Source: Promethearchaeota archaeon
Lineage (GTDB): Archaea > Asgardarchaeota > Hermodarchaeia > Hermodarchaeales > Hermodarchaeaceae
DNA length: 64,000 bases
NCBI GenBank assembly: GCA_048938385.1
Contig: JBHLMG010000002.1
Span: forward strand, 96,001 to 160,000
Direction of reading: 5' to 3'
Positions 22,325 to 36,235 of this stretch are shown piece by piece; the first letter of the stretch is position 1; every line of letters begins with the position of its first letter. A program made the position numbers and the translations under genes. The notes under the pieces are model-generated. The model ran no database searches, was not told where the DNA came from, and saw only the letters and a list, made by a program, of their open reading frames with translations.

Positions 22325-23962
22325 TTATCGCAGAATGATGTTTGCCCAAAACTGAGCGATTTGCTCTCGGGTTTCATAAGAGAGAAGACGGTAGTTGGCT
22401 AGCTGACGTGTTCCGCGTTGAATGTGTTCAGAGCTAAAGGGTCTTGTTAACCAATTTTGCTCTTGGGCTTGTTCATCCAACATATTACGGAATAATGAGT
22501 TTGATCTAATTTCAGTTCGTAGTAGTTGGATTAGTTGATCTCCAAAGATTTCGTCAAATAACTGGACATGATAAGCGGATTGTGACCCTTCTAGAAGACG
22601 AAGTGGAGGAATAACACCATACCGTCCTTCACCATTACCTACTTTGATGACAAAAACCGGAACAACCAAGCGCATCAGGGGTAGATATCCTTGGAGGGTT
22701 TCCGCAGGAGCACTGATCGATTCAAATTGATGGTGTTCTTGGTCGATTTGATTGCGTAATTTTTCCAAGGATTCTTTCAACTCGCCATGAAGTTGGATTG
22801 TGGCTTCACGAACCATGTCGAGTTCAGATAACTGGGCATCCAGAGAATCTTCTGGAGTTGAACTAGAATATACTAAAGTGCCGGGTGGAAAAGGAGCCGC
22901 AGGTTCAGTCAAAGGTTCTTCTTGACTCCACTCGAATCTTTGTTCTGCCTCTTTGAGTTGTTCCATTTTATCATCAATTTCAGTTATGGCTTGTTTAATT
23001 GCGGCTTGAAAAAGAGTTGCAGTATTGTCTAGTTCCATTAATCGCGCTTTGACATTTGCGAGATGCCATTCCGCGTTGGTGGGTTTCGCTTGAATCTGAC
23101 TTATCAATCGACGACATTGATCTGTAGAAAGCCCCAATGTGGACTCGAGTTTTGTGATGAGATCCGCAAGATCTTGGGATATTCGCTCCTTTTCTTGGCC
23201 CAATTTTTGAGCTGGTTCATCTACAAAAAATGACGGAGCAGGCTCGCTTTCTATAGGTGTCGTTTCCCAGCGAAGAGATGCTCCAGGAGCCATTCGATCT
23301 CGTTTTGCATCAACAAGATGTAATTGTTCTTCAACAAATTCATCTATAAGATTCTCAACTTGTCCGAGCTGTGCCAGGTTGCTGTCAAAACGAGCTCGTT
23401 CATTCCTGAATAATATGCCTACATCGTGAATTTCCTTGGTTGATAGACGGGACTGAAGACAGAGTTCTTCCCTAGGGGGAGGGATAGATGGTTCAACGAG
23501 TAATTGCAAGGTATCAATCATTGTTGGCAACATAGCGTTTCGAATCACGAGGCGTTCGCTTTGAGGTTGTTCAAAAAGCTGGATGATTTCTCCAAGAAAT
23601 CGGGGCACCTGTTCTGGTTGTTCAATTCCACGGAGTTGTTCACGTAGATGGACTAAAGAGGGAATCGATGAATGTCGGACTGAAATCGCAGGTTCTCCTA
23701 CACCACTGATAATCAAGCTTCGTCCTGGCAAGGCATGGACAAGGTAGAAGGGAACATAAAGACGAGCTAAATACACCAAAGGAATTGAACTGCTCTTCAC
23801 TTGGGTCCGAAAATACATCACGGCTGATACCAAGTCAGCTTCCTCTGTAGATGTGAAGCCATTTCTCATTGCTTCGGGAGGGCCTTTAATGAAGGTTGCG
23901 ACCTTGGTTATCGCCACTTTATAACCCCTAGGGAGATTAGCTACCCAATTGATGAAAACCAA
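22325..23962 (-). CDS. hypothetical coiled-coil protein (start possibly 23869)
   Basis: Long heptad-rich central region flanked by LYVPFYLV and LVVPVFVI segments. Confidence 0.75.
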   Translation of the reverse strand: MVFINWVANLPRGYKVAITKVATFIKGPPEAMRNGFTSTEEADLVSAVMYFRTQVKSSSIPLVYLARLYVPFYLVHALPGRSLIISGVGEPAISVRHSSIPSLVHLREQLRGIEQPEQVPRFLGEIIQLFEQPQSERLVIRNAMLPTMIDTLQLLVEPSIPPPREELCLQSRLSTKEIHDVGILFRNERARFDSNLAQLGQVENLIDEFVEEQLHLVDAKRDRMAPGASLRWETTPIESEPAPSFFVDEPAQKLGQEKERISQDLADLITKLESTLGLSTDQCRRLISQIQAKPTNAEWHLANVKARLMELDNTATLFQAAIKQAITEIDDKMEQLKEAEQRFEWSQEEPLTEPAAPFPPGTLVYSSSTPEDSLDAQLSELDMVREATIQLHGELKESLEKLRNQIDQEHHQFESISAPAETLQGYLPLMRLVVPVFVIKVGNGEGRYGVIPPLRLLEGSQSAYHVQLFDEIFGDQLIQLLRTEIRSNSLFRNMLDEQAQEQNWLTRPFSSEHIQRGTRQLANYRLLSYETREQIAQFWANIILR

Positions 23963-24023: not shown

Positions 24024-25415
24024 GTGGATATGATTTCAATGCCAAGGCAAATCATTGTAATTGGCTGCGGAACCGCAGGAGCCGCAGCTACACTAATGGC
24101 TCGCAAAACCGACCGAAACGCTACTATCACCATCATCCAAGGCGAATCACTTCCTGAATACAGTCGTTGTGGACTACCTTATACTGTGAACAAGAAAATT
24201 CCCAACATGGAAGATGTGATTATCCATCCTAATACCTTCTACACAGGAAATTTAGTGAGGGCAAATTTACTACTTGATACTTTAGCCCTTAGCCTTGATA
24301 TCAAGAAGAAACGAGTCGAAATAAAAACTCCTGATGAGGGTTCGGATCACCTTGCATACGATGCTCTTGTCCTAGCAACGGGGGCGGAACCTAGCACACC
24401 ACCTATTAATGGATTGGATGCTCCGCATGTCCATCGTTTGCATACCTTCAATGATGCAAAAAAGCTTCAGGCAGTAGCTAAAACAGGGAAAAAGGCAGTC
24501 ATCATTGGCGCTGGTCTCGTTGGATTAGAAACTGCTGAAGCGCTTCACAGCTTAGGTCTCAAGATCACTGTCGTTGAGTTTCTTAACCAAGTGTTACCGG
24601 CAATGCTTGATGAAGAAATTGCCACATTGGTTCAAGAACGCATGGAGGATGAAGGAATAGTTCTCAAATTGGGAACGGCAGCTAAAACGGTTACTGACAC
24701 TGAAGTTGTCATGGCTGATAGGGAAACCCAAACTGAATTTCAAGTTAAGGCTGACATTGTTGTCGTAGCCACAGGTGTCCGGGCTAATACCACACTAGCT
24801 CAAGGGGCTGGTGTTAAACTTGGTGAGCGTAAAGGCATCCTCGTTAACGATCAGATGCTAACCAGTGTTCCAGATGTTTACGCCGCGGGGGATTGCGCAG
24901 AGCACTTGGACTTGGTCACTGGGCAGACAGTGGTTTCGGGACTTGGTAGCGTTGCACTCCGGCAAGGAGAAGTCGCAGGAACGAATGCTGCTGGTGGGAA
25001 GGCAAAATTAGACGGAGTGGTTCTCGCTCGGACAACTCATCTTTTTGGTTTAGAGGTTGCAGGAGTGGGACCTACACGCGTTGCTGCAGAGCTGGCTAAT
25101 CTACCTATTTTAGCTGGTAAATTTAAGGGTAGTAGAACAGCGGAGTATTATCCAAGTGATGAGGAAGTGACCATTAAACTCCTTGCCAATAAGGATTCAG
25201 GTCGGCTCATAGGGGGGCAAGCTATTGGTCCTTGTGCCCACCAAAGGGCGAATATTCTCAGTGCAGCCTTAGCGGCTAAAATGACTATTCAACAAGTGGC
25301 GGATCTAGAAACTTGCTATGCGCCACCTGTCGCACCTATTCGCGAACCTTTGACTATGGCTGCTCAGATCCTTGCTTTGCGATATGAACGAATGCAACAA
25401 AAGCAGCAGAAATAA
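24024..25415 (+). CDS. FAD-dependent NADH oxidase / CoA-disulfide reductase family protein
   Basis: IGCGTAG, YSRCGLPY redox Cys, LATGA, IGAGLVGLE, YAAGDC, YAPP. Confidence 0.92.
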   Translation: MDMISMPRQIIVIGCGTAGAAATLMARKTDRNATITIIQGESLPEYSRCGLPYTVNKKIPNMEDVIIHPNTFYTGNLVRANLLLDTLALSLDIKKKRVEIKTPDEGSDHLAYDALVLATGAEPSTPPINGLDAPHVHRLHTFNDAKKLQAVAKTGKKAVIIGAGLVGLETAEALHSLGLKITVVEFLNQVLPAMLDEEIATLVQERMEDEGIVLKLGTAAKTVTDTEVVMADRETQTEFQVKADIVVVATGVRANTTLAQGAGVKLGERKGILVNDQMLTSVPDVYAAGDCAEHLDLVTGQTVVSGLGSVALRQGEVAGTNAAGGKAKLDGVVLARTTHLFGLEVAGVGPTRVAAELANLPILAGKFKGSRTAEYYPSDEEVTIKLLANKDSGRLIGGQAIGPCAHQRANILSAALAAKMTIQQVADLETCYAPPVAPIREPLTMAAQILALRYERMQQKQQK

Positions 25416-25471: not shown

Positions 25472-25930
25472 CTAGGTACTTTCTTTAAGCTTCTGAATAG
25501 CCAATGTCACGCCTTGAATTATCGCCTCAGGTTTTGGTGGACAACCAGGAACATAAACATCGACGGGAATCGCCTTGTCAACTCCTCCAATAATCGTATG
25601 TGTTTCTTCAACATTCGAACCTTCTCCTTCAACAAAAATGCCACCTGTACATGCACAGGATCCCAAAGCAATGACGGTCTTGGGAGCTAGCATTTGATCA
25701 TAAATCCGTTTGATGAACACTTTCGAATGCTTTGAAACACACCCATTTGTAACTAAAATATCAGCGTGCCGTGGGTTTTGCTTCCATAGTACTCCAAATC
25801 GCTCAACATCAAATCGCGGAGTTAACACATCCAACACTTCAATGTCGCAATTATTGCAGCCCCCCGCGTGAAGCACTGCTATCCAAGGAGATTTGCCACG
25901 AGCCCAACTCAGAATACCCAACACTTCCAC
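25472..25930 (-). CDS. group 4 [NiFe]-hydrogenase small subunit (NuoB/HycG/EchC-like)
   Basis: GGCNNCDIE, NPRHADIL, GSCACTGG, YVPGCPPKPE. Confidence 0.93.
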   Translation of the reverse strand: MEVLGILSWARGKSPWIAVLHAGGCNNCDIEVLDVLTPRFDVERFGVLWKQNPRHADILVTNGCVSKHSKVFIKRIYDQMLAPKTVIALGSCACTGGIFVEGEGSNVEETHTIIGGVDKAIPVDVYVPGCPPKPEAIIQGVTLAIQKLKEST

Positions 25931-25932
25931 CT

Positions 25933-26508
25933 CTAATACTGCAACTCCCTTAGATCCTTTGTGCTCAAGGATCCCTTCAATGAAAAAATCCTTTGAGCGA
26001 AAAGTAGTAACACGAGAATCAAGCCCCCTGAAAACACCAACAATAATCCCTCAATCAAAATATCAAATGCCGGTACCAGTAAATGCACGGAATAAGTGAG
26101 AATCGAAACACTAACGGTGGTCTTTCTTAAATCCGTCTTACTTAACAATCCGTATAGTCCGATGAGGATAACTGGCCACTGAATGCTTGTCACTCCCAGT
26201 ATGAAAAATGAGATGACAAAAGCGATTATGACCAAAGTAATCAATAGTACCATTGAAGGCACCCGAGTAAGTAACGACGGCTCCTCGATTATTTTGGTAC
26301 GTATTGTCGTAAAATACAGACTTACTGGCATAAACCCAATGAAAAAGATTGTAAAAGGGACTATGTCCAGCACAATTCCCTCGAGGAGTGATTCAGTAGT
26401 GAGAATTGTTCCCAGAATTGCTAAAAGCACAGGGACGGCACGAAAATCCCATATTTCAATGATTGCCATCACTAAGATGATAATAATCACACCTATGACT
26501 GGATTCAC
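25933..26508 (-). CDS. membrane subunit of the hydrogenase complex (possibly HyfE-like); start reassigned to GTG 26508
   Basis: Multi-TM; GGAGGA-GTG start overlaps the upstream TGA; lies inside the operon. Confidence 0.7.
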   Translation of the reverse strand: MNPVIGVIIIILVMAIIEIWDFRAVPVLLAILGTILTTESLLEGIVLDIVPFTIFFIGFMPVSLYFTTIRTKIIEEPSLLTRVPSMVLLITLVIIAFVISFFILGVTSIQWPVILIGLYGLLSKTDLRKTTVSVSILTYSVHLLVPAFDILIEGLLLVFSGGLILVLLLFAQRIFSLKGSLSTKDLRELQY

Positions 26509-27071
26509 TCCTCCCACCTCCGTGAATAATACTTCTGCGGATGCGTATTTAGTTGGTAAGACGATTTTCTCCGACACTCGCTACACAGATTCAAATATTT
26601 TGATAAATCTTCTATCACTTCTGTAGTTAAACGGGCATCTATATTTTCTATGATCCGGGTTCGAATTTTTTCGAGATGTTGAGGGGTGGATACCGGTGTT
26701 CCGCATTTCTCGCAAGGTACTAAGTCAAAGTTGATTGTGACAGTAGCCTGATCCTTGTCATTAATGGCTATCTCAAACTGCTCGGAAAGAGTGATTCCGT
26801 CCTCTGGACAAATATCCTCACAGCGCCCACAAAAAATGCATCTTGGATAGAAAATACTTAAGGTACGGGTATGGTCATCATCCTTCAGAGAGATGGCTTT
26901 GGCAGAGCAAGAAACGACACAAGCGCCACAACCAATACATTTCTCTTTATCGAACTGGGGAAGGCCTCTAAGTCCTGGTGGAAGGTGGCTAGGTGGACCA
27001 AAAGGGTATTTTGTAGTTGCGGGTTTAAATAGCGCTTTCAACGCTTCTTTGATCGCTGTTATTTTGACCAT
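26505..27071 (-). CDS. hydrogenase 2x[4Fe-4S] subunit (NuoI/HycF-like)
   Basis: TTKYPF...RG, CIGCGACVVSC, CIFCGRCEDICP, extra CEKCG/CSECRR as in HycF. Confidence 0.92.
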   Translation of the reverse strand: MVKITAIKEALKALFKPATTKYPFGPPSHLPPGLRGLPQFDKEKCIGCGACVVSCSAKAISLKDDDHTRTLSIFYPRCIFCGRCEDICPEDGITLSEQFEIAINDKDQATVTINFDLVPCEKCGTPVSTPQHLEKIRTRIIENIDARLTTEVIEDLSKYLNLCSECRRKSSYQLNTHPQKYYSRRWEE

Positions 27072-27072
27072 A

Positions 27073-28065
27073 TCAGAATCCCACCATGACACGTGTTAAG
27101 GAAATCAATGCTAAGGCAAGGGTTATTGTGAAAAACCACTTGAATACATGATTAATTCGGTACCTCGCGCTTTTTACATGAATTATCGTCATCAAAATAA
27201 CGACTAAGAGACATTTCACGAGGAAGACCAGAATATCAAATGGAAAGATTAGACCATCACCCCCACCTAAGTAGAGATCAACAAAGAGGGCGGAAAAAAC
27301 ATAGAATCGAAACATTCGAGCTAACTCGAAGATACCTAATAAGGGTCCACCATATTCCGTGAGTGGACCAGCAAAGATCTCTTGTTCTGCCTCAGGGATA
27401 TCTCCAAAAGGGCGCATCCACGATTTGGTAAGAAGACTGAGGAATAGAGTGATGGCGGCAAGAGGATAGCGAAAGACAAACCACTTTGGGAGAATCCAAA
27501 CGAATTGACCAACTTGTGCTATAATGACGGTTGTAATAGACAGTGATAATTCTGAACCAAAGCCGCTTATCGCTAATGAGGGAATGAGGAGTGAGATGGC
27601 TAAGGGAAGTTCTACGCTCAGAAGTATGGTGACCTCTCGACTACTCCCAATTTTTCCCCATGGTGATCCAGAAGCCCACCCCGCCAGGACAAATGCCACT
27701 GAAAACATGACGGAAAAGTACAAAATCACAATTAAATCCCATGAGACCGCACCAGGCCAATACGATACACCAGGTGGAACCATGAAACTTAACGCTAGAA
27801 TGGCGCTCAGGGCAATTAAGGGTGCGAGAATATAAACTGTTTTATGCGCTAGCTTTGGGAGGAAACGCTCTTTTCCTAACAACTTGACGATGTCGGCAAT
27901 GGGCTGGTACCAAGGAGGTCCCCTTCGAGCTTGAAGCCGTGCAGACACTTTTCGAAACACCCAGTACGCTAGCCAACTAAAGATAAAGGCTAGTCCAATA
28001 GCAGCGAAATACAATCCTAGAATTGGGGCGAAGGAGAATCCTAAAGACAGGATATCAAACATCAT
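27073..28065 (-). CDS. hydrogenase membrane subunit (NuoH/HycD/EchB-like)
   Basis: RKVSARLQARRGPPWYQPIADIVKLLGKE, PF.DIPEAEQE, GPLTEYGG. Confidence 0.93.
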   Translation of the reverse strand: MMFDILSLGFSFAPILGLYFAAIGLAFIFSWLAYWVFRKVSARLQARRGPPWYQPIADIVKLLGKERFLPKLAHKTVYILAPLIALSAILALSFMVPPGVSYWPGAVSWDLIVILYFSVMFSVAFVLAGWASGSPWGKIGSSREVTILLSVELPLAISLLIPSLAISGFGSELSLSITTVIIAQVGQFVWILPKWFVFRYPLAAITLFLSLLTKSWMRPFGDIPEAEQEIFAGPLTEYGGPLLGIFELARMFRFYVFSALFVDLYLGGGDGLIFPFDILVFLVKCLLVVILMTIIHVKSARYRINHVFKWFFTITLALALISLTRVMVGF

Positions 28066-29924
28066 ATCCACCCCACAGTTACCCCTATTAACAGCAGCAC
28101 TGCAAATATGACAAACCAGAGTAAATACATGTTAATTGATCCAGTGTGGGTTTTCCTCACAGCATTCAACATTGACCGAAATGGATAGGCAAAAACAGTG
28201 GATGGCGGGTTTACCTCTTCAATCTTGAAATAGGGCTCTGCGAGGGTTCCACCAGTGAAAGGCATTGCTTTATCACCGGTTTCAACCGGTGTAACGCCCC
28301 ACTGGAATCGATAGAGGATGTATCCAATAATGAATCCAATAAGCATCAATGTTGCAATTAAAAAGGGGTCCCATGCTCCACCAAAGAAGAATAAATTTGT
28401 GAAAAGATTCACAGGTGGCGGAATTCCTGTTGGAATGAGACTAAGGGTTGCAGGATAGACCAAAAAGAAGATGGCGAATTGGGGGATGATTCCAAAAAGA
28501 ATACATCCTGTAGCTAACACAACTGATGGAGCCAGCATACTCTTCGAAATCGAGCGTGCATCAACTATGGTTTGTGAGGATGTTCCAAGAAATACTGAGC
28601 ACAATAAACGAAGAAATACGGCAAAGGTTAGAGCTGAAGTGAATATTGCAATGAAGGCGAAGACAGGCTGCCCAGCTGCAATACAGGCATTGTACACCAT
28701 CCATTTGCTGATGAAGCCGTTCAATAACGGAACGCCCGCAACGGATAAGGATCCGATAAGCATCACATAGCCAGTCGTGGGCATAGTACGAAGTAATCCG
28801 CCTAATTTGTTCAAGTCCTTTGTTCCGGTTTCATGCTCAACCGTTCCAGCACTAAAGAAGAGCACTGATTTGAAGAGACTGTGGTTAATTAAATGGAAGA
28901 GTCCAGCTGCTATACCACCTGCTGCGATACCAAGCCATACACTATCTGCTGTGATATTGTAATAGCTCAAGGCAAGCCCTCCAATCCCAAACCCCAAGAT
29001 TACATATCCCATTTGGCTAACGCTATCGAAGGCGAGCAGGCGTTTCAAATCATTTTGTGCAAAGGCTATAATGACGCAGATGAGCATAGTTAATGCTCCC
29101 AGAATGCACACTAGAAGCCAAAAGTTGACATTCACAAACAGTGAATTAAATGTCAACAGGATAAGAAACGCAGGCATTCCAGCAACTTTTATCATCATGG
29201 CGTGTAGCAAAGTGCTAATCGATGCAGGTGCAACTGTTGAAGCATCGGGAAGCCATGTGTGGATTGGAAATGAAGGAAGCTTAACAAGAAATCCCATGAA
29301 TACCAGAAAGATCGCCAGCTTCCCCTCAAAACCCATTAGAACACCTGAAGCTAACAACAGCTCAATACCAAAGGCTGCTATTCCGGCTAATCCTCCTCCC
29401 GACGCTAGCTGGTAGCAAAGCGCTAACCCCCCAACGACAAAGAGAGATGCAAAAATTTGGATGATGAGGTATTTTGTAGCTCCTTCAAGGGATTTGGTTT
29501 TTCGATGGTGGGCAATGAGGAACGCAGACCAAATTGTTGAAGCTTCTGCGAGCACAAAAAGCCACAAAAGGTTCCAACTATAGGCCATACCGATGAGGCT
29601 ACCAATCGTCATTAGTGTGAAGAAACTATAGGTTCCTTCTCGCTCTTCGATGTACTTGAGGGAGTAAACAGTTACCAGAAACCCAATAAGGGCGGCAATC
29701 AATGCGATGAAATTAGTATAACCATTCACAGTGAAGTTAAATCCTAATATTGCAAACACACTTACTCCCACAAAGGGGCTGAATATGTTAGCAATGACCG
29801 CTGCTAACGCGTAACTCGTTGCGAGAATGGCAAACACATCATTTACTCTTCGAAAACGAGTCCCTAAGAGCGAGAGAACTGCAGCGAGGTAGAGGCTGAC
29901 TAGGATTAGAGCAGGATCAATCAT
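28062..29924 (-). CDS. antiporter-like ion-translocating subunit (NuoL/HycC/HyfB/EchA-like)
   Basis: KLPSFPIHTWLPDA, QNDLKRLLAFDSVSQMGY, HLINHSLFKS, GVPLLNGFISKW. Confidence 0.93.
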   Translation of the reverse strand: MIDPALILVSLYLAAVLSLLGTRFRRVNDVFAILATSYALAAVIANIFSPFVGVSVFAILGFNFTVNGYTNFIALIAALIGFLVTVYSLKYIEEREGTYSFFTLMTIGSLIGMAYSWNLLWLFVLAEASTIWSAFLIAHHRKTKSLEGATKYLIIQIFASLFVVGGLALCYQLASGGGLAGIAAFGIELLLASGVLMGFEGKLAIFLVFMGFLVKLPSFPIHTWLPDASTVAPASISTLLHAMMIKVAGMPAFLILLTFNSLFVNVNFWLLVCILGALTMLICVIIAFAQNDLKRLLAFDSVSQMGYVILGFGIGGLALSYYNITADSVWLGIAAGGIAAGLFHLINHSLFKSVLFFSAGTVEHETGTKDLNKLGGLLRTMPTTGYVMLIGSLSVAGVPLLNGFISKWMVYNACIAAGQPVFAFIAIFTSALTFAVFLRLLCSVFLGTSSQTIVDARSISKSMLAPSVVLATGCILFGIIPQFAIFFLVYPATLSLIPTGIPPPVNLFTNLFFFGGAWDPFLIATLMLIGFIIGYILYRFQWGVTPVETGDKAMPFTGGTLAEPYFKIEEVNPPSTVFAYPFRSMLNAVRKTHTGSINMYLLWFVIFAVLLLIGVTVGWI

Positions 29925-29931
29925 TGTTGCT

Positions 29932-31158
29932 TCATCCGAAGAACTTGGATAGTTCCGCTAATGTTAGATGTTGAGAGGTCCCCGAAGTTTCATCCTTGAT
30001 ATGCGTAACTCGGTCGGTACACGCCATACATGGATCAACAGATGCCACTGTGATTGGCACATCAGCCAATTCCTGTCCTCGGAGCATGAAGAGGAGGGCA
30101 TAATCATTCAAATACGAAGGTGTCCGAACACGGGCTCTTCCCGGATTTCTAGTCCCATTGGAAACGAGGTAGTAGAGGAGTTCACCTCTCGGTGCTTCTA
30201 CGCGTCCTACAGCTTCGCCTGGTGGAAATTCCTTTACTTCGGTCTTGATGGGTCCTCCAGTCTGTTTGAGTTTGTCTAAACAAAACTCAGAGATCTTCAC
30301 TGATTCGACAAGTTCGCCTAATCGAACTAACGCCATGGAAAAAATGTCGCCGTTCTCGGCTGTGATTACATCAAAAGGAGCTTCATCATAGGCCGCATAG
30401 GGATCATCTTTTCGAACATCGATTTTGATTCCCGCGGCTCGGGCAACGGGGCCAACTACACAAATCTTCTTGGCAATTTCTCTGTCAAGTGTTCCTATTC
30501 CCTTCGTGCGTGATTTGATTTCTAGGTCTTCTAGCACGGCTTTTGTCGCGGTAATTGTTGCTTGGTGTAATACCTTTAGCTTTTCTTCAATTTTCGGGAT
30601 CATATCTTTCGTAATGTCTCTTCGGACTCCCCCGATGGTATTCATAGCGTAATGTTGACGATTTCCTGAGATGGCTTCAAGCACATCCAGCACGTGTTCC
30701 CGATCTCGCCATATCAACATAAACAAAGTCTTGAATCCAATTAATTCCATACCAACTCCCGCCCACAATAGGTGGCTATGGATCCTTTCTAATTCGGCAA
30801 CGAGAGTTCGAATATAGCGGGCGCGATCAGGAATTTCTACCTCTCCAAGCATTTCTACGGTCCTTGTATACGCAGTCGTATGTGCGGCACTACAAATTCC
30901 ACAGACGCGTTCAAAGAGATAGAGGTTCTGCCAATAGCTTCGCTCCTCAGCGAGCTTCATAATCCCGCGATAGTTGTACCCTAACTTTATGTCCGCTTCT
31001 AATACTTTTTCACCTTCGACCTTCAACTTGAAATATTCTCCTTCGAGCAAGGCAGGATGAAATGGACCCAAAGGAATGATATATTCAGGAGCAGTGACTT
31101 CATTAATTTCCAGTGGAATCGTTATTTCTCTTGTAGCTAGTTTTTTCTTCTGTGACAT
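29932..31158 (-). CDS. group 4 [NiFe]-hydrogenase large subunit
   Basis: GPFHPALLE, L1 ERVCGIC, ELERIHSHLLW, EAPRGE, L2 DPCMACTDR plus C-terminal extension. Confidence 0.95.
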   Translation of the reverse strand: MSQKKKLATREITIPLEINEVTAPEYIIPLGPFHPALLEGEYFKLKVEGEKVLEADIKLGYNYRGIMKLAEERSYWQNLYLFERVCGICSAAHTTAYTRTVEMLGEVEIPDRARYIRTLVAELERIHSHLLWAGVGMELIGFKTLFMLIWRDREHVLDVLEAISGNRQHYAMNTIGGVRRDITKDMIPKIEEKLKVLHQATITATKAVLEDLEIKSRTKGIGTLDREIAKKICVVGPVARAAGIKIDVRKDDPYAAYDEAPFDVITAENGDIFSMALVRLGELVESVKISEFCLDKLKQTGGPIKTEVKEFPPGEAVGRVEAPRGELLYYLVSNGTRNPGRARVRTPSYLNDYALLFMLRGQELADVPITVASVDPCMACTDRVTHIKDETSGTSQHLTLAELSKFFG

Positions 31159-31587
31159 TTATCCCACTTCCTCCGAAGGCCAAGCATAGGGGAGAAAGAG
31201 TTTCCGAGGATCAGGATGGCCTTCGAAGTCAATTCCCATAAGGTCCATTAGTTCCCTTTCAGCCCAGTTGGCGGACCAAGCCACCTTGGTAACTGATTCA
31301 ATGACAGGGGTTTTTCTTGGAAGTCTTACTTTCACAGATAACATGAGGCCGCGCTCTTGGTGTGAGAAATCGAAGTGATAAACGAGGTCAAATCCTTGGA
31401 TTCCTTCATCTGTTGCTGATATTGCTACAAGTTTTCCATTCTCTGCGATTAGAAGCTCGGTGATTTCTCTTATTCGGGTTGAGTTAGACCGCAGATAGTG
31501 TCTGTTATACTTGTCATGGCGCTCCTCAACGAAATCGGTTTTAAGGAGTTTCTTTAATCTTCGATTGAGTTCTTCTATTCGACCCAT
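31159..31587 (-). CDS. NuoC/EchD-like hydrogenase subunit
   Basis: LVYHFD, ANWAERELMDLMGIDFEGHPDPRKLFLP. Confidence 0.92.
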   Translation of the reverse strand: MGRIEELNRRLKKLLKTDFVEERHDKYNRHYLRSNSTRIREITELLIAENGKLVAISATDEGIQGFDLVYHFDFSHQERGLMLSVKVRLPRKTPVIESVTKVAWSANWAERELMDLMGIDFEGHPDPRKLFLPYAWPSEEVG

Positions 31588-32463
31588 CTAATTACCTCCA
31601 GGTCGGATTTTCGCTATGAGTGTATCTGTTTTAATCCGATGTCTATCAAATCCGATGTCTTCTGGTTTGAAACCGAAACTTAGCGCCATCAGTTCCATTA
31701 GATTCAGCATAGGAATGTCGAATCGGACTCCTTTGCGTCTCAGGAGTAACTGAGCGTTCTCTAGAACATCGTAGCACCCTGGGCAAGCCGTGACAATACA
31801 ATCCACCTTAGCCGCTTGCATTTTCTCTAACTTGAACCTCGATCGTTCTTCAGTGGCTTTATCAAGTGAATATAACGATAGTGGGAAACCGCAACAGATT
31901 TTTTCAGCACCATACTCTGCAACCTTGACTCCGAGAGCCTTCAAGATATTGTCAAAGTAAGAAACAAATTTTTCATTTGGGCTTTTGTACAACTTACAAC
32001 CATACTGTACAGCTACTGTCAACTCTGTGAAGCGCTCTTTAACAGCCGCTTGTAATGCTTGTAACCCGACTTCCTCAATGATGACTTCTAGAAAATGCTT
32101 GACCTCTGATTTCCCTGTATATTCCCGATCAAGGAGCTTCAGTTTTGAATTGACTTCAGCTAGTTTCTCATTATCTTTCAGCAAGACTTCGCGAGTCTCG
32201 TGGAGGGTTTCCCAGCACCCATTACAAACAACCATGATGTCATTGCCCAAGGCTTCAGCAAGGGCAAGGTTTCGAGCAGACACATAGAGCCAGGCATCAT
32301 GATCGGCTAGGCGAACGATTTCTGGCACTGGACAGCAGGTAGCTCCTTCCATCTCCATAAACTTTAATTTTAGCGAGGGAGCGATTTTTCGAAGTGACGC
32401 TTCAGCAAAGGGTTGGAGGGCAGGTATGTAACATCCAAGGAACAACGCATAAGTTTTAGTCAT
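31588..32463 (-). CDS. hdrB: heterodisulfide reductase subunit B (two CCG domains)
   Basis: FLGC, TCCP, ARNLALAE, CNGC, YGC, ICCG, TACPGC. Confidence 0.9.
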   Translation of the reverse strand: MTKTYALFLGCYIPALQPFAEASLRKIAPSLKLKFMEMEGATCCPVPEIVRLADHDAWLYVSARNLALAEALGNDIMVVCNGCWETLHETREVLLKDNEKLAEVNSKLKLLDREYTGKSEVKHFLEVIIEEVGLQALQAAVKERFTELTVAVQYGCKLYKSPNEKFVSYFDNILKALGVKVAEYGAEKICCGFPLSLYSLDKATEERSRFKLEKMQAAKVDCIVTACPGCYDVLENAQLLLRRKGVRFDIPMLNLMELMALSFGFKPEDIGFDRHRIKTDTLIAKIRPGGN

Positions 32464-32466
32464 ACC

Positions 32467-32751
32467 CTAGTCACCTCCAGGTTCTGATGGTTCTTCCCTC
32501 AGATTCCAAATAGCCTTCTCAAATAAGGCAGTTCGCTTTACAAGTTTTTGTAGCTCTTTTTGTGCGCTTTCAAGAGCATACGCTGTGGGTGGTTTTCGAT
32601 TCATTCCTAGGGTTTCTCGAAGTTTTTCACGAGTAGCAACAAGCTTTGGTATATGCCCAATTTGGATGATATTTACAATTGGGTTCTTAAACGCAGGGGG
32701 AAGAGTCTTTACCTTTTTTCTCCAGGGATATATATCCTCGTCTCTCATCAT
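32467..32751 (-). CDS. mini-HdrC-like protein (HdrC C-terminal helical part only, no Fe-S cysteines)
   Basis: GHIP...LRETLG...PPT...A..ELQKLVK resembles the HdrC C-terminus; no Cys; directly upstream of hdrB. Confidence 0.65.
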   Translation of the reverse strand: MMRDEDIYPWRKKVKTLPPAFKNPIVNIIQIGHIPKLVATREKLRETLGMNRKPPTAYALESAQKELQKLVKRTALFEKAIWNLREEPSEPGGD

Positions 32752-33221
32752 ATCGACTCCCTACGCTGCCTAGCATCTTCCCGCGACATCACCTGCAACG
32801 CACCTGTACTACAGTATTTGGCGCAACGAGGGTCCCCCTCACAGAAATTGCATTTTTCACTAATTCCCATGGCCTTGTTAAAAATAGGAATGGAAATTGG
32901 GCAAGCGTAATTGCATGATTTACACCCGATGCATCGAATGTTATCAATAGTAACGAATCCCCGTTCATCTTTGGTGATTGCCTTCGGATCAGTAGGACAA
33001 GCAGCAACACAAAAGGGGTGTTCACAATGTGCACAATAGGCGTTGATGAAGGCTATGGGTTCCGCCTCGTCGGGGTAAACACGGAGATAAGATTTCTCAA
33101 GATCTGCTTCTTCGAAATGATGAAAAGAACACACAATCATGCAGTAATAACAGCCAGAGCACTTCTTATTGTCAAACACTAGTACTTTCTGTTTCAGTAG
33201 TTCATCTGACATAAGATTCAT
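32748..33221 (-). CDS. 4x[4Fe-4S] electron-transfer protein (HycB/CooF/DmsB-like)
   Basis: CSGCYYCMIVC, CAHCEHPFCVAACP, CIGCKSCNYACP, KCNFCEGDPRCAKYC. Confidence 0.92.
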   Translation of the reverse strand: MNLMSDELLKQKVLVFDNKKCSGCYYCMIVCSFHHFEEADLEKSYLRVYPDEAEPIAFINAYCAHCEHPFCVAACPTDPKAITKDERGFVTIDNIRCIGCKSCNYACPISIPIFNKAMGISEKCNFCEGDPRCAKYCSTGALQVMSREDARQRRESI

Positions 33222-33285: not shown

Positions 33286-34575
33286 TTAGAGGGGGCGAAC
33301 AGGGCGTAGATAATGTACGGAACAGGAGATGCAGGGATCATAGGCGCGAATCAACATGTTGAGCCGCAGTTCTGCCTCTTCCTTTGATAACTCAGAGAGT
33401 TCGGGAACGAGAGCATATACATCTGCTTCAATGTTTGCATAGTTCATCGCAGTTGGCGTGATCACATCAGCGGCTTGTACTTTTCCTTGGGCGTTAAAGG
33501 AATAGCTATGAATTAAAACGCCTCGAGGGGCCTCTACTGCAGCCGCACCTGTTCGAGCACGAATTTTGTATTCCACAACATGTGGCTGTAACTTGTGACT
33601 TCGAAGTTTGTCGATTATTTCAATGGCATGATCAACATAATGAAGGTACTCAATTGCCTGTCCTAGATTCATATGGAAGCTATCATAGCTTGGTAATTTC
33701 AAACCGATTTTTTTCACCATATCCTTTGCGTTATCCGATAATTGTTTTTTTGCGACATTCAAGCGTGCGAGGGCTCCAACGACAAAGGGGTTTCCTTGAA
33801 TCTCACTGAATTTTGCATGCCCATAGGGTACATTACGTTCGATAATCAGATTTTGGTACTCTTTATCAGGAACCTGTAAACCTAGGTCGGTTGTTAATTC
33901 TCCATTATAGATCGGGTACTCCCTGGCATGTTTAACTGCTAGGTATTGGCTTTTTCGGACTAATTTAGGTTCAGAAAATGTACTCATTAACTGGATTTGA
34001 GCTTTCGCCTCTGGAATTGCATCGTGGAGGCGTTTTCGGATCGCGTGTAGCTGGGAACTAGTAGGGACATGAGTAAACCCACCCACCACTGCACATAACG
34101 GATGAGTATGTCGTCCACCAATGAGTTCCATAAGATCGTTACCGAGTTTCTTCAGTTGGAGAGCGCGTTTTACTTCGTTGGGGTATTTGGGTAACATTTC
34201 TACGACATTTTGCGCCTGCAAATAGTCAGGAAGGGCAAGAAAGTTGATGTGAAGCGCGTGGCTTTCGAGCATGTCACCAATCAACATGAGTTTCCGAAGA
34301 GCAATCGTTTCTTCTGAGGGCTGAACCTCTAGTGCCGCTTCAACTCCCCGAATCGCTGCGATGGCATGGGAATGGCTGCAGATGCCACAAATTCTTGACA
34401 TGATGTGGGACACTTCATTGTATGCTTGTCCCTTGAGGAACGATTCAAAAAGGCGCGTGCCCTCTGTTACTTGCATTTCTACGCGAGATCTCCCTTTGTC
34501 AGTGACTTCCACGAGGAGATTGCCGTGCCCTTCAACCCGTGCCAAATGATGAATGTCAAAGGTTACTTTAGCCAT
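33286..34575 (-). CDS. hydA: group 3b [NiFe]-hydrogenase (sulfhydrogenase) alpha/large subunit
   Basis: ARVEGHG, SRICGICSHSH, EAPRG, RAYDPCISCSVH. Confidence 0.95.
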   Translation of the reverse strand: MAKVTFDIHHLARVEGHGNLLVEVTDKGRSRVEMQVTEGTRLFESFLKGQAYNEVSHIMSRICGICSHSHAIAAIRGVEAALEVQPSEETIALRKLMLIGDMLESHALHINFLALPDYLQAQNVVEMLPKYPNEVKRALQLKKLGNDLMELIGGRHTHPLCAVVGGFTHVPTSSQLHAIRKRLHDAIPEAKAQIQLMSTFSEPKLVRKSQYLAVKHAREYPIYNGELTTDLGLQVPDKEYQNLIIERNVPYGHAKFSEIQGNPFVVGALARLNVAKKQLSDNAKDMVKKIGLKLPSYDSFHMNLGQAIEYLHYVDHAIEIIDKLRSHKLQPHVVEYKIRARTGAAAVEAPRGVLIHSYSFNAQGKVQAADVITPTAMNYANIEADVYALVPELSELSKEEAELRLNMLIRAYDPCISCSVHYLRPVRPL

Positions 34576-35357
34576 TCGATACTCAGCCTCTTGCGTAACT
34601 CATTTACAAAGTCCTCAGATCCAGCATTGAACATTCGGAATTTTCTAACCACCGTATCGAAGCTCGCTCCTTTTACTGAAAACATGTCAATTTCAGAATC
34701 CACATTAGCTTGAGGAACTGGACCCCAACACCCTTCACAAGGAAAGTCAACACTGGGGCACAATGCCCCACAACCTGCTCGCGTGATTGGACCAAGACAC
34801 AATTCTCCCTCTTTCAACAAGCACTCATTCTCTTTTAATCGACATTCTACACAAACAGGGTAGTTTTTCTCCCGTGGAGTTGACCCAGAAAGAAAAGCGG
34901 TGATAGCCTCCAAAAATTCAGTCCCGTTAATTGGGCAACCTTGAAGCTCGAAATCAACTTCAACATATTTTTTCAAAGGCAAGATTTCTGGGAGTGTCTT
35001 CACATGAGATGCATCGCCATATACTGATTGTTTTAATTCTTCAACATTCAAGCCATTGCGCATGGCATTTACTCCACCAGTGGTTGCACAGGCTCCCATG
35101 GCGATGAGGATCTTGGATTTCTCCCTCAACTCTTTCAGCTTTGCAAGTTCCGCTTCGTTAGTCACTGATCCTTCAATAAAACATATGTCATAGGGGCCAT
35201 CATGTGTTGCCGAACTCCCCATTCGGAACTGAACTAATTCTATTGCTCCAAGAATATCAAGTAAATGATCTTCTTGATTGATGATTTCTAATTGACACCC
35301 TGCACAACAGGTGAGACCAAACAGAGCCACAACAGGTTTAGCAGCAGGTTCTGACAC
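34563..35357 (-). CDS. hydD: group 3b hydrogenase delta/small subunit
   Basis: LTCCAGCQL, EGSV, GACATTGG, GCP, VCVEC, CLGPITRAGCGALCP, PCEGCWG. Confidence 0.93.
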   Translation of the reverse strand: MSEPAAKPVVALFGLTCCAGCQLEIINQEDHLLDILGAIELVQFRMGSSATHDGPYDICFIEGSVTNEAELAKLKELREKSKILIAMGACATTGGVNAMRNGLNVEELKQSVYGDASHVKTLPEILPLKKYVEVDFELQGCPINGTEFLEAITAFLSGSTPREKNYPVCVECRLKENECLLKEGELCLGPITRAGCGALCPSVDFPCEGCWGPVPQANVDSEIDMFSVKGASFDTVVRKFRMFNAGSEDFVNELRKRLSIEWLK

Positions 35358-35377
35358 TATTTATCGCTCTCCTACTC

Positions 35378-36235
35378 CTACACTGCACCTCGAAGCCCTT
35401 TTGCCTCAGCATAACTAAACACAGGACCATCCTGGCAAACAAACTTTGATCCTACAAGGCAATGACTACATTGCCCTACACCGCATTTCATGCGGCGTTC
35501 TAGTGAGAGAAATATTCTGTCATCAGGAAACCCGAAATTGTGTAAATCGCGAATCACGAAACGGTACATAATTGGTGGTCCACATACGAGGGCATAGGTA
35601 TCTTTAGGTTCTACCTTGATTCGGTCAAACAGAGCTGTGACCACGCCAATATTCCCCGCCCAACAGTGGTCGTCATCACGATCAACAGTAGCTACATATT
35701 CCACATCATTTCGGTTCGCCCAAAGATAGAGCTCATCCTTGAAGAGCAGTTCCTCGGGACAGCGTGCACCGTACAGGATTTGGAATTTCTCATACTGGTC
35801 ACGATTCTCTAAAATTTCCAAGATAACCGGACGAATGGGAACAAGTCCCATTCCTCCAGCAACTATCATGACATTCTTTCCTCTCAAGGATTGCATAGGC
35901 CAACCACGACCATACGGACCGCGCAAAGCTACTCGGCTTCCCACAGGAAGTTTTGCTAAAGCATTAGTTAACAGTCCTACTCCTCGAATGGTTAGTTGAA
36001 TGCTTTCGGTATGATTAGGAGATGAGCTCAATCCAAAGGGCGCTTCTCCAAAACCAAAAACTGATAGCAACATAAACTGACCTGGCTGAAATTGGAAATC
36101 TTGTTGTTGTTGCTTATTCAGATACCCAAAAGTGTACAAGTTCGTGTCTGGGGTTTGAGGCTCAATTTGCAGTAGTTCTGCAAGGTTATAATGGTAAGGA
36201 TTTTGTGCTGTGTCTACAGCGTTGGAAATAGGCAT
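35378..36235 (-). CDS. hydG: group 3b hydrogenase gamma subunit (FAD/NAD(P)-binding, [2Fe-2S])
   Basis: FQPGQF, GEAPF, RGPYGRG, AGGMG, CGPPIM, ERRMKCGVGQCSHC...VCQDGPVF. Confidence 0.93.
   Translation of the reverse strand: MPISNAVDTAQNPYHYNLAELLQIEPQTPDTNLYTFGYLNKQQQQDFQFQPGQFMLLSVFGFGEAPFGLSSSPNHTESIQLTIRGVGLLTNALAKLPVGSRVALRGPYGRGWPMQSLRGKNVMIVAGGMGLVPIRPVILEILENRDQYEKFQILYGARCPEELLFKDELYLWANRNDVEYVATVDRDDDHCWAGNIGVVTALFDRIKVEPKDTYALVCGPPIMYRFVIRDLHNFGFPDDRIFLSLERRMKCGVGQCSHCLVGSKFVCQDGPVFSYAEAKGLRGAV

Follow-up and report, generated by a model that had tools for sequence, protein, structure and literature searches.

A ten-gene Ehd-type operon of a Hermodarchaeia-like Asgard archaeon and its likely role as an ion-translocating H2:disulfide oxidoreductase

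[quoted passage not shown] The question arises from a stretch of 64,000 nucleotides (contig JBHLMG010000002.1, positions 96001-160000; the whole stretch is called the window hereafter), in which ten tightly packed hydrogenase and Hdr genes had been predicted from the letters alone. We found all ten open reading frames on the minus strand at 25472-33221, exactly where they had been placed and each with a match to the expected family. The operon is real and intact, and its host is a Hermodarchaeia-like Asgard archaeon; the closest homologs of the large subunit are labelled Hermodarchaeota or Promethearchaeota. The ten genes are the following:

32748-33221, minus strand: HycB/CooF-type polyferredoxin, 4 x [4Fe-4S] (PF13247 Fer4_11, E 3e-14)
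32467-32751, minus strand: mini-HdrC (TIGR03290 positions 79-142, E 6e-6; without Pfam match)
31588-32463, minus strand: HdrB with two non-cubane [4Fe-4S] sites (PF02754 CCG x2)
31159-31587, minus strand: NuoC/MbhK-like subunit (PF00329, E 9e-25)
29932-31158, minus strand: [NiFe]-hydrogenase large subunit (PF00346 and PF00374)
28062-29924, minus strand: NuoL/MbhH-like antiporter-type membrane subunit (PF00361 and PF00662)
27073-28071, minus strand: NuoH/MbhM-like membrane subunit (PF00146, E 7e-61)
26505-27092, minus strand: NuoI/HycF-like subunit, 2 x [4Fe-4S] (NF009053, E 1e-38; HyfH, E 6e-38)
25933-26577, minus strand: small membrane subunit of 214 aa (PF00420, E 1e-3, under the cut-off)
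25472-25930, minus strand: NuoB-type hydrogenase small subunit, one [4Fe-4S] (PF01058, E 4e-30; NF005012 over the cut-off)

When the longest open reading frames are taken, the junctions from the polyferredoxin to NuoC are an overlap of 4 nt (an ATGA that joins the polyferredoxin and mini-HdrC genes) and gaps of 3 and 0 nt, followed down to NuoB by gaps of 0 and 7 nt, overlaps of 10, 20 and 73 nt and a gap of 2 nt. The long overlaps shrink with the start codons used in orthologs, and the polyferredoxin orthologs start at the second ATG, giving MSDE... No MvhD/HdrA-type match and no second CCG protein was detected in the window, in line with the earlier statement that HdrA and Mvh genes are missing there, and none of the open reading frames of the operon is a ferredoxin gene.

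The large subunit of the hydrogenase core carries both Ni-binding motifs, RVCGICSAAH and DPCMACTDR, followed by 25 further residues, which bears out the claim of a complete site with a cleavable tail. Among solved structures P. furiosus MbhL (6cfw_L, E 2e-84) is the nearest; its chain stops where the large subunit has R383. A HycI-type protease gene is present elsewhere in the genome. Tail and protease would fit the maturation of an active NiFe site. The NuoL-like subunit, strongly hydrophobic along its whole length, has MbhH (6cfw_H, E 4e-59) as its closest solved relative, followed by MrpA. The NuoH-like subunit has about eight hydrophobic segments; the 214-aa subunit has about six, a weakly NuoK/MbhG-like C-terminus and a conserved position in orthologous operons. 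Among the iron-sulfur subunits, the NuoI/HycF-like protein, matched by the FHL iron-sulfur subunit model NF009053, has 12 Cys with an additional C-terminal CxxC...CxxC pair, while the NuoB-type small subunit shows the CxxC...C...CP cysteines.

The first three genes form the unusual part. In the polyferredoxin, 16 Cys in four CxxCxxCxxxC-type motifs are invariant in 13 orthologs, and its PDB relatives include FHL HycB (7z0s_B) and HDCR HycB3. HdrB has two CCG domains with all ten non-cubane cluster cysteines (C11, C43, C44, C80, C83, C156, C190, C191, C227 and C230), which show no or almost no variation among 70 sequences. It matches the methanogen HdrB structures 8rvu_b and 5odc_B with E 1e-54, and methanogen HdrB is its nearest NCBIfam model, with SdhE, LutA and other CCG proteins farther away. 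Mini-HdrC, 94 aa without any Cys, resembles only the C-terminal part of HdrC: it aligns with residues 111-173 of PDB 8rvu_c (E 4.5e-4) and with residues 115-182 of a full-length HdrC of the same genome (hhalign E 3e-12), and its YPxRK motif is invariant in 18 sequences. Judged by these alignments, it is what remains, without cysteines, of the C-terminal arm with which HdrC wraps HdrB.

Is the Hdr module a lasting part of the hydrogenase? In the synteny survey, hdrB was syntenic in every relative examined. Across Methanomethylicia, Bathyarchaeia and at least eight Asgard families, polyferredoxin, HdrB and the group 4 core remain linked in spite of five different arrangements. Order A is found in the window, in six complete and two cut same-genus loci, in family f17, in a vent metagenome and in Methanomethylicia; order B in family f14; order C in families f2, f20 and Bathyarchaeia; order D in families f5 and f8; and order E in family f21. 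In both order D families the C-terminal 85 residues of NuoC are the mini-HdrC (hhalign E 4e-12 and 7e-13, compared with E 0.22 for a 160-aa NuoC control), a fusion that joins the Hdr part to the arm of the hydrogenase. NuoC is fused to the large subunit in Bathyarchaeia and in families f2, f14 and f20. In a quick tree, the HdrB-linked large subunits are one clade (SH-aLRT 99), with Mrp-Mbh-type and Hdr-less neighbours outside; the window falls within a type A clade (support 100), in which Methanomethylicia branch as sister to the Asgard members. Every HdrB-linked ortholog keeps the NiFe site, the tail and the protease.

Two neighbours flank the operon:

33286-37342, minus strand: group 3b (sulfhydrogenase-type) HydB-G-D-A hydrogenase (NCBIfam sulfhyd_HydA/B/D/G, ShyA-D; Pfam)
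24024-25415, plus strand: single-Cys CoADR/persulfide-reductase-type flavoprotein (TIGR03385, E 2e-88, under the cut-off)

The group 3b hydrogenase, complete with four genes, immediately precedes the operon on its own strand, separated by 64 nt; it was absent from the original prediction. The adjacency is repeated in all same-genus loci and in L007, and in divergent orientation in Methanomethylicia. The flavoprotein has an SRCGLPY motif and A. fulgidus NoxA-3 (6pfz) as best PDB match. Its gene is convergent with the operon end in the window and adjoins every type A Asgard locus that extends beyond nuoB (L016 stops there); in L008 the gene follows nuoB in the orientation of the operon, at a distance of 66 nt.

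By gene order and orthology the arrangement is not new: it is an Ehd ortholog with identical gene order, and the HdrB-hydrogenase design had already been predicted in print. Ehd is a name from Borrel et al. 2019 according to Kohtz et al. 2022 (PMC9723716) and bioRxiv 10.1101/2022.08.18.504445. [quoted passage not shown] All ten genes recur in identical order in a Methanomethylicia MAG (L003/L004), where a 3b hydrogenase adjoins them; L003 is equated with the published Ehd from the description alone. The large subunit of this MAG shares 64% identity with that of the window and branches as sister to the Asgard type A clade. The window differs in its host, a non-methanogenic Asgard archaeon in whose MAG no mcrA or comA was found. 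The earlier statement that Ehd has no intact NiFe site was mistaken, as the papers call Ehd-type clusters [NiFe]-hydrogenases and both motifs are present in the Methanomethylicia ortholog. In Asgardarchaeia, Baldrarchaeia, Hermodarchaeia and Odinarchaeia, Appler et al. (bioRxiv 10.1101/2024.07.04.601786) report [NiFe]-hydrogenases of groups 4l/4q, MBH-like complexes to which a heterodisulfide reductase domain is peripherally attached; they present AF2-Multimer models and propose the same function. The window operon is orthologous to these Hdr-carrying group 4 hydrogenases of Hermodarchaeia and other deep Asgard lineages, subgroup letter aside; the passages on them do not mention the Cys-free HdrC remnant, the NuoC fusion or the conserved neighbours.

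Further modular HdrB-interacting group 4 [NiFe]-hydrogenases are Ehe (Culexarchaeia), Ehd-like (Bathyarchaeia/Culexarchaeia), Drh (Methanocellales) and Ehg (Nezhaarchaeia), the last expressed in the cultured strain YNP3N, and independent proposals of the same function exist for Ehd, Ehe and Ehg. The Bathyarchaeia locus (L005) has the subunits of the window in another order. Ehe has additional SdhA, CdhA and GcvH and Ehg additional FdhA, HdrA and MvhD, none of which belongs to the window operon, while Drh lacks the antiporter subunit that the window keeps. The implied novelty is thus lost to Ehd, Ehd-like, Ehe, Ehg and groups 4l/4q, although these are described from genomes, a weaker form of precedent than a characterized complex.

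We consider it probable that the ten genes encode one Ehd-type membrane complex, an H2:disulfide oxidoreductase with ion translocation and without HdrA. Our observations cover the genes present, their cofactor ligands, their orthology and their conserved linkage; from these we infer the assembly of a single complex, the direction of electron flow, the ion coupling and the substrate. The four-cluster polyferredoxin and the HdrB module, held by the cysteine-free HdrC remnant, would extend the peripheral arm. Electrons would pass between the NiFe site and the two non-cubane clusters of HdrB via NuoB (one cluster), NuoI (two) and the polyferredoxin (four), following the FHL path HycE-HycG-HycF-HycB-FdhF with HdrB replacing FdhF. 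The likeliest physiological reaction would be H2 + R-S-S-R' -> R-SH + R'-SH. The NuoH/NuoL module would use its free energy to move H+ or Na+, and neither HdrA nor flavin-based bifurcation would be involved. The potentials are about -414 mV for H+/H2 and about -140 mV for CoM-S-S-CoB, so that ion translocation would be affordable if the disulfide has a similar potential. A functional analogue exists in Methanosarcina, where the Vht/Vho hydrogenase, methanophenazine and HdrDE couple H2 and heterodisulfide to the membrane potential. The overall reaction equals that predicted here, but Methanosarcina uses two separate enzymes with cytochrome b and methanophenazine, whereas here one complex-I-like enzyme is predicted, with neither a quinone nor a haem.

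The proposed wire between NiFe and HdrB with ion translocation is supported by the linkage, the fusion, the single clade and docking. In complex predictions the polyferredoxin scored ipSAE 0.87 against mini-HdrC plus HdrB, and the best of three controls 0.14; the docking mark is attained by 58 of 80 solved complexes and by 2 of 110 mismatched pairs. Across three runs at least 92% of the contacts agree, with a partner pLDDT of at least 86. The polyferredoxin is thus predicted to dock on HdrB, with Cys motifs 1 and 4 contacting the CCG region near C156 and C190/C191. Because the ferredoxin domain of HdrC resembles the first domain of the polyferredoxin, the score may partly come from likeness to solved HdrB-HdrC (HdrBC) interfaces. 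Synteny, NuoC fusion and predicted docking together make the original proposal, with HdrB in place of Fdh, the best-supported reading, its novelty excepted. What speaks against it is that HdrB reaches 223 bits with TIGR03288, under the 345-bit equivalog cut-off, and that the nearest solved relatives, MBH and FHL, evolve rather than consume H2.

These relatives suggest another reading. P. furiosus MBH (6CFW, group 4d), the closest solved structure for the large and the antiporter-like subunit, has a full Mrp module (MbhA-G) but neither the polyferredoxin nor the HdrB of the window; a classical Mrp-Mbh locus (L010) with this arrangement shows 49% identity. E. coli FHL-1 (7Z0S, group 4a) likewise wires large, small, HycF-like and HycB-like subunits to a terminal catalytic subunit, there the molybdoenzyme FdhF, here HdrB with its HdrC remnant. 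MBH depends on ferredoxin, HycB/CooF-type polyferredoxins often sit at electron-entry positions, and 2-oxoacid:ferredoxin oxidoreductases are encoded in the genome. Ferredoxin might therefore also enter at the polyferredoxin, with electrons leaving to protons at the NiFe site as in MBH or to a disulfide at HdrB. Such a ferredoxin:disulfide/proton oxidoreductase, with H2 as by-product or overflow, would resemble the Fpo-like plus HdrD proposal for Methanomassiliicoccales. The Appler preprint compares the Asgard complexes with ferredoxin-oxidizing MBH, and proposes docking at NuoI, where ferredoxin is taken to dock in MBH too, which leaves the four-cluster extension unneeded. The operon brings no ferredoxin gene of its own, and the kept NiFe site, tail and protease fit H2 as a true substrate or product, in either direction. 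We regard ferredoxin oxidation as rather unlikely.

Could the H2:disulfide oxidoreductase run backwards, with the ion gradient driving thiol oxidation to H2, or close an internal loop with a cytosolic Mvh-HdrABC, giving net ferredoxin-dependent H2 production with extra energy conserved? Group 4 hydrogenases are reversible in principle, and Ech and Eha/Ehb use the gradient. The genome search for hdrA, mcr and CoM genes succeeded for hdrA: a canonical HdrC-HdrB...HdrA-MvhD-MvhG cluster and several HdrA-MvhD fusions are present, meaning that two disulfide-handling systems coexist. The flow from thiol to H2 is, however, strongly endergonic for known heterodisulfides, and nothing in the sequence indicates a direction; this is pure inference and in our view very improbable.

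No mcrA, comA or dsrC was found in the MAG (89.8% complete), which leaves the disulfide source without a candidate and counts against the H2:disulfide oxidoreductase. As the host is non-methanogenic, CoM-S-S-CoB cannot be assumed as substrate, and the disulfide is probably another one. HdrB might even act on a sulfur species or a protein-bound group (persulfide, polysulfide, CoA persulfide, or a lipoyl-GcvH or LbpA-type carrier as in sHdr systems) instead of a low-molecular-weight disulfide. This would be a sulfur-linked H2 metabolism parallel to the MBH/MBS, SH and NSR set of Thermococcales, and that neither comA nor mcrA was found speaks for it. We hold it to be unlikely, since HdrB is nearest to methanogen HdrB among the NCBIfam models, the two neighbours stand outside the operon, and the sole GcvH gene of the genome sits on a different contig from the operon, in the vicinity of the canonical Hdr cluster. 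In its favour are the persulfide-reductase-type flavoprotein beside the type A Asgard loci, co-oriented in L008, the sulfhydrogenase-type 3b enzyme adjoining the operon in Asgard and Methanomethylicia, and GcvH beside the Bathyarchaeia cluster and inside the Ehe cluster of Culexarchaeia.

The ten minus-strand open reading frames between 25472 and 33221 were recovered in the order and with the sizes of the original prediction, and the Pfam and NCBIfam assignments agree with its gene families. Neighbouring genes overlap or are no more than 7 nt apart; the gap between hdrB and nuoC is 0 nt, and 3 nt separate hdrB from mini-hdrC, which precedes it.

Genes of the operon (all on the minus strand), from the polyferredoxin gene onward
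Polyferredoxin: 157 aa; Fer4_11 (Pfam/NCBIfam); 16 Cys in four ferredoxin-type motifs of the translation
Mini-HdrC: 94 aa; no Pfam match, weak TIGR03290 match at positions 79-142 (HdrC C-terminal half)
HdrB: two CCG domains; two CX31-33CCX35CXXC patterns
NuoC subunit: by Pfam and NCBIfam assignment
Large subunit: group 4; Complex1_49kDa plus N-terminal NiFeSe_Hases motif region (PF00346, PF00374)
Antiporter-like membrane subunit: 620 aa; NuoL/Mrp type, NuoL/MbhH-like
NuoH subunit: by Pfam and NCBIfam assignment
NuoI subunit: 26505-27092, minus strand; HycF/HyfH-like; two CxxCxxCxxxC motifs
Membrane subunit: 214 aa, hydrophobic; no convincing solved relative by sequence
NuoB subunit: by Pfam and NCBIfam assignment; usual four cysteines present

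The large subunit indeed carries intact Ni motifs, RVCGICSAAH and DPCMACTDR, followed by a tail of 25 residues. Its nearest solved relative is MbhL, and that of the antiporter-like subunit is MbhH, both from the P. furiosus MBH (6CFW), with HycE of FHL next. The solved MbhL chain stops at the residue aligned to R383, directly before the tail, which therefore fits proteolytic maturation. Neither of these classical enzymes describes the operon. The Mrp module of Mrp-Mbh hydrogenases (group 4d; MbhA-G / MnhB, E, F, G), seen in full at locus L010, is absent: Pfam found none of MnhE, MrpF, PhaG, MbhD and MnhB in the operon, which has three membrane subunits. FdhF, the electron-input subunit of FHL (Hyc/Hyf, group 4a), is likewise absent, no molybdopterin protein being found among the ten operon genes or the flanking genes examined. 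The window holds no HdrA or MvhD gene, and an Rfam scan of it gave no match. The NuoI subunit has an extra C-terminal CxxC...CxxC pair (C127, C130, C170, C173), which could be the site of an additional metal or cluster.

HdrB aligned over its full length with HdrB structures from methanogens (E 1e-54). Its ten cluster cysteines, which align with those of solved HdrB, are invariant or nearly so in a 70-sequence alignment, and its score against TIGR03288 is 223 bits, below the equivalog cut-off of 345. Mini-HdrC corresponds to about residues 110-173 of the 185-residue HdrC in solved structures and matches residues 115-182 of the HdrC encoded elsewhere in the genome with an hhalign probability of 97.6% (E 3e-12). 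It contains no cysteine and consists of the C-terminal arm only, so that the two [4Fe-4S] clusters typical of HdrC in HdrABC are missing. Thus, the operon shares with HdrABC the HdrB with two CCG domains for two non-cubane [4Fe-4S] clusters, but differs in its Cys-free HdrC remnant and in having no HdrA partner in the window. We rejected a pseudogene or frameshift product, because mini-HdrC has its own start, is a separate gene of about 85-96 aa in many genomes and serves elsewhere as a fusion partner of NuoC. An invariant YPxRK motif marks the product of this conserved stand-alone gene, which the source databases call "hypothetical". By family the polyferredoxin is of the HycB/CooF/DmsB type, and all 16 of its cysteines are invariant across orthologs. 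It appears that the Fe-S role of HdrC has passed to this four-cluster HycB-type protein, while the HdrC arm that embraces HdrB was retained.

For the synteny survey, 151 Asgard genomes were searched with the large subunit, 35 of them also with HdrB, and all subunits were mapped in the loci fetched from surveyed genomes (16) and public assemblies (10). HdrB and the polyferredoxin lie beside every large subunit of the clade whose contig is long enough, in five gene orders.

Gene orders of the HdrB-linked cluster and where they occur
Order A (that of the window): six complete and two cut same-genus loci (13 same-genus genomes searched), family f17, a hydrothermal-vent contig, Methanomethylicia
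Order B: family f14
Order C: families f2 and f20, Bathyarchaeia
Order D: families f5 and f8
Order E: family f21

The synteny of hdrB with the hydrogenase genes, on which the prediction depended, is kept in all relatives examined. Since the linkage persists through five rearranged gene orders, we take HdrB, polyferredoxin and hydrogenase to be a functional unit. Order D has no separate mini-HdrC gene. Its NuoC is 215-223 aa long and ends in 85 residues that align with the profile of mini-HdrC (hhalign, E 7e-13 and 4e-12), while the 160-aa NuoC of order E, used as a control, gives no match (E 0.22). In these clusters hdrB sits between the fused gene and the large-subunit gene.

NuoC-mini-HdrC fusions in Asgardarchaeia-like families f5 and f8
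L009:2234-2881
L020:4899-5570
L025:10552-11217

The fusion joins NuoC covalently to the putative HdrB-binding peptide and is direct evidence, from sequence, for an Hdr module that would sit on the hydrogenase.

For 47 large subunits, a set that does not include the published Ehd reference sequences, a quick maximum-likelihood tree placed all HdrB-linked sequences in one clade (SH-aLRT 99). Outside this clade fall the Mrp-Mbh locus and the second, Hdr-less hydrogenases beside order C clusters. The window large subunit falls in an order A clade of 13 rows (support 100), the Asgard members of which are sister to Methanomethylicia. The large subunit is closest to homologs (82-87% identity) that bear the labels Hermodarchaeota, Promethearchaeota and, in one case, Odinarchaeota; those from Methanomethylicia (64%) and Bathyarchaeia (58%, NuoC-fused) follow. 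Within the genus, about 8 of 13 other genomes have an ortholog (74-86% identity) and the remainder only a paralog of about 44% identity; as these MAGs are 72-91% complete, absence may mean unassembled. Four loci of families f2 and f20 (L019, L021, L022, L023) carry a second group 4 core 1-5 kb downstream of the HdrB-linked cluster, made of NuoB, a fused NuoCD, NuoH and NuoI without HdrB, and its large subunit lies outside the HdrB-linked clade.

All HdrB-linked large subunits examined have both NiFe motifs and a tail of 23-36 residues. This includes the Methanomethylicia protein and corrects the view that Ehd clusters lack an intact NiFe site. Ehd of Methanomethylicia reportedly goes back to Borrel et al. 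2019, as credited in Kohtz et al. 2022. In Kohtz et al. 2022 (PMC9723716), the Ehd, Ehe, Drh, Ehg and Ehd-like clusters are described as membrane [NiFe]-hydrogenases that interact with HdrB and include HdrBC and an antiporter subunit; the authors propose that they couple H2 and heterodisulfide with ion translocation. For Ehg, expression is reported from a Methanonezhaarchaeia strain in culture. The window operon shares with Ehd the intact NiFe group 4 large subunit, the clustered hdrB and mini-hdrC, the antiporter-like subunit and a clade with the Methanomethylicia ortholog. As far as the available part of Appler et al. (bioRxiv 10.1101/2024.07.04.601786) describes the Asgard subgroups 4l/4q, the window agrees with them in lineage (Hermodarchaeota-labelled homologs) and architecture, a likeness drawn from these two features. 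In the original Hermodarchaeota paper, group 4 hydrogenases are listed and the Hdr link is not noted. The claim of novelty hence falls: the design is already in print, and judged by gene content and clade the window operon is an ortholog of this genome-predicted, Ehd-type kind of HdrB-linked hydrogenase. In those parts of the published accounts that were accessible, we found no mention of a HycB-type protein with four clusters alongside a Cys-free HdrC remnant, of the order D fusion or of the conserved neighbourhood of 3b hydrogenase and CoADR-type genes. These are refinements and not a new system. Together, the window locus and the NuoC-mini-HdrC fusion of its relatives provide sequence-level evidence for an Hdr module that would be physically part of the hydrogenase.

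Structure prediction supports docking of the polyferredoxin on HdrB. The polyferredoxin against mini-HdrC plus HdrB scored 0.87 in all three runs, with 0.14 for the best of three controls; the mark is reached by 58 of 80 solved complexes versus 2 of 110 mismatched pairs. The runs agreed in at least 92% of contacts, and partner pLDDT was at least 86. Confident predicted contacts connect polyferredoxin residues 20-41 and 132-140 with HdrB residues 155-160 and 185-198, around C156 and C190/C191. Cys motifs 1 and 4, expected to ligate one cluster jointly, lie in the two polyferredoxin segments. Because the contact site is where the HdrC cluster nears HdrB in solved enzymes, the result may in part be recall of a solved interface. 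The predicted complex thus supports an electron wire from the polyferredoxin to HdrB without proving it.

In the mechanism that we propose, a single membrane complex would move electrons between the NiFe site and the two non-cubane HdrB clusters along seven cubane clusters (one in NuoB, two in NuoI, four in the polyferredoxin), and the NuoH/NuoL-type module would be coupled to this flow conformationally or electrostatically, as it is in MBH and complex I. The H+/H2 couple lies at about -414 mV and known heterodisulfides at about -140 mV, so that flow from H2 to a disulfide is exergonic enough for outward ion movement and is taken as the likely direction. Taken as one statement, a single complex with a NiFe-HdrB wire and H2-to-disulfide flow linked to ion translocation is in our view reasonably probable. 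The mechanism of the original prediction therefore stands as plausible and matches the published proposals, while its missing NiFe site in Ehd and its novelty do not hold. Alternatively, the polyferredoxin might be where ferredoxin enters, and electrons would then go to either protons or the disulfide, which is possible if on the unlikely side.

The neighbouring genes may bear on the substrate. A complete sulfhydrogenase-type group 3b hydrogenase in the order HydB-G-D-A lies 64 nt upstream of the operon, and a flavoprotein converges on its downstream end.

33286-37342, minus strand: group 3b hydrogenase
24024-25415, plus strand: single-Cys (SRCGLPY) flavoprotein of the CoADR/NADH-oxidase/persulfide-reductase type; best PDB match A. 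fulgidus NoxA-3 (6pfz)

The 3b adjacency is conserved in same-genus loci and in L007, and recurs in divergent orientation in Methanomethylicia (L003). The CoADR-type gene adjoins the operon in every order A Asgard locus that extends past nuoB; in L008 it is on the same strand as the operon, 66 nt after nuoB. This neighbour may hint at a thiol or sulfur substrate. A sulfur-type or protein-bound group in place of a free disulfide would suit the CoADR/persulfide-reductase-type gene past nuoB, co-oriented in L008, the adjacent 3b enzyme of Asgard and Methanomethylicia, and GcvH, which occurs beside the Bathyarchaeia cluster and inside the Culexarchaeia Ehe cluster. We nevertheless judge such a substrate quite improbable.

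The host MAG (2.48 Mb, 51 contigs, 89.8% complete) derives from sediment metagenomes, and the sequencing runs listed with the locus are sediment and mangrove DNA only. A genome-wide search of this 89.8%-complete MAG did not find mcrA, comA or dsrC; the lack of the first two makes CoM-S-S-CoB an unlikely substrate here. The genome encodes seven CCG-domain proteins, six MvhD-type domains (four within HdrA-sized proteins), two or three further NuoD-like genes, one HycI-type endopeptidase and one GcvH. On contig 46, a canonical Cys-bearing HdrC with HdrB, three 2-oxoacid:ferredoxin oxidoreductase genes, HdrA, MvhD and MvhG form one run, showing that ordinary cytosolic Hdr/Mvh machinery coexists with the membrane-linked HdrB. 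The oxidoreductase alpha, beta and gamma genes stand between HdrC-HdrB and HdrA-MvhD-MvhG on one strand (L027:1025-8659, minus strand), an unusual insertion. The sole GcvH gene is also on contig 46, on the other strand and 2.4 kb plus two open reading frames from the canonical HdrCB, and was rejected as a local substrate carrier.

The membrane complex might also run in reverse, driven by the gradient, or take part with Mvh-HdrABC in an internal H2/disulfide cycle, both of which we consider very improbable. One may further speculate that in this non-methanogenic Asgard host the Ehd-type complex, the NAD(P)-linked 3b hydrogenase, the CoADR-type flavoprotein and cytosolic Mvh-HdrABC form one thiol/disulfide hydrogen economy on a cofactor other than CoM/CoB (e.g. 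CoA, per-/polysulfide or protein-bound lipoyl), a rather unlikely arrangement. If true, the membrane complex would be the energy-conserving step, either in a 'disulfide respiration' with H2 that needs neither quinones nor cytochromes or in an internal H2/disulfide cycle through which ferredoxin-dependent H2 production gives a higher yield.

With HdrB-linked group 4 hydrogenases, archaea may have a widespread means of energy conservation from H2 and a disulfide, independent of cytochromes, quinones and flavin-based bifurcation. The presence of these enzymes in non-methanogens sharpens the old question of which disulfide Hdr enzymes reduce there; for Asgard archaea, the answer bears on hydrogen-metabolism models of eukaryote origin. 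The window locus is a clean and complete example with informative neighbours, the 3b hydrogenase and the CoADR-type flavoprotein.

By eye, a TTTATA-like box is visible in the 64 nt that separate the polyferredoxin gene from the 3b genes upstream. A scan for sigma-70 promoters and intrinsic terminators, models not applicable to archaea, gave counts at or below shuffled expectation. A 545-aa open reading frame (22325-23962, minus strand) matches no Pfam or NCBIfam family. At the equivalent position, between the CoADR-type and FEN1/XPG nuclease genes, the Hermodarchaeota loci L001 and L002 have a family-less gene of 549-562 aa, which we liken to the window frame by position and length alone.
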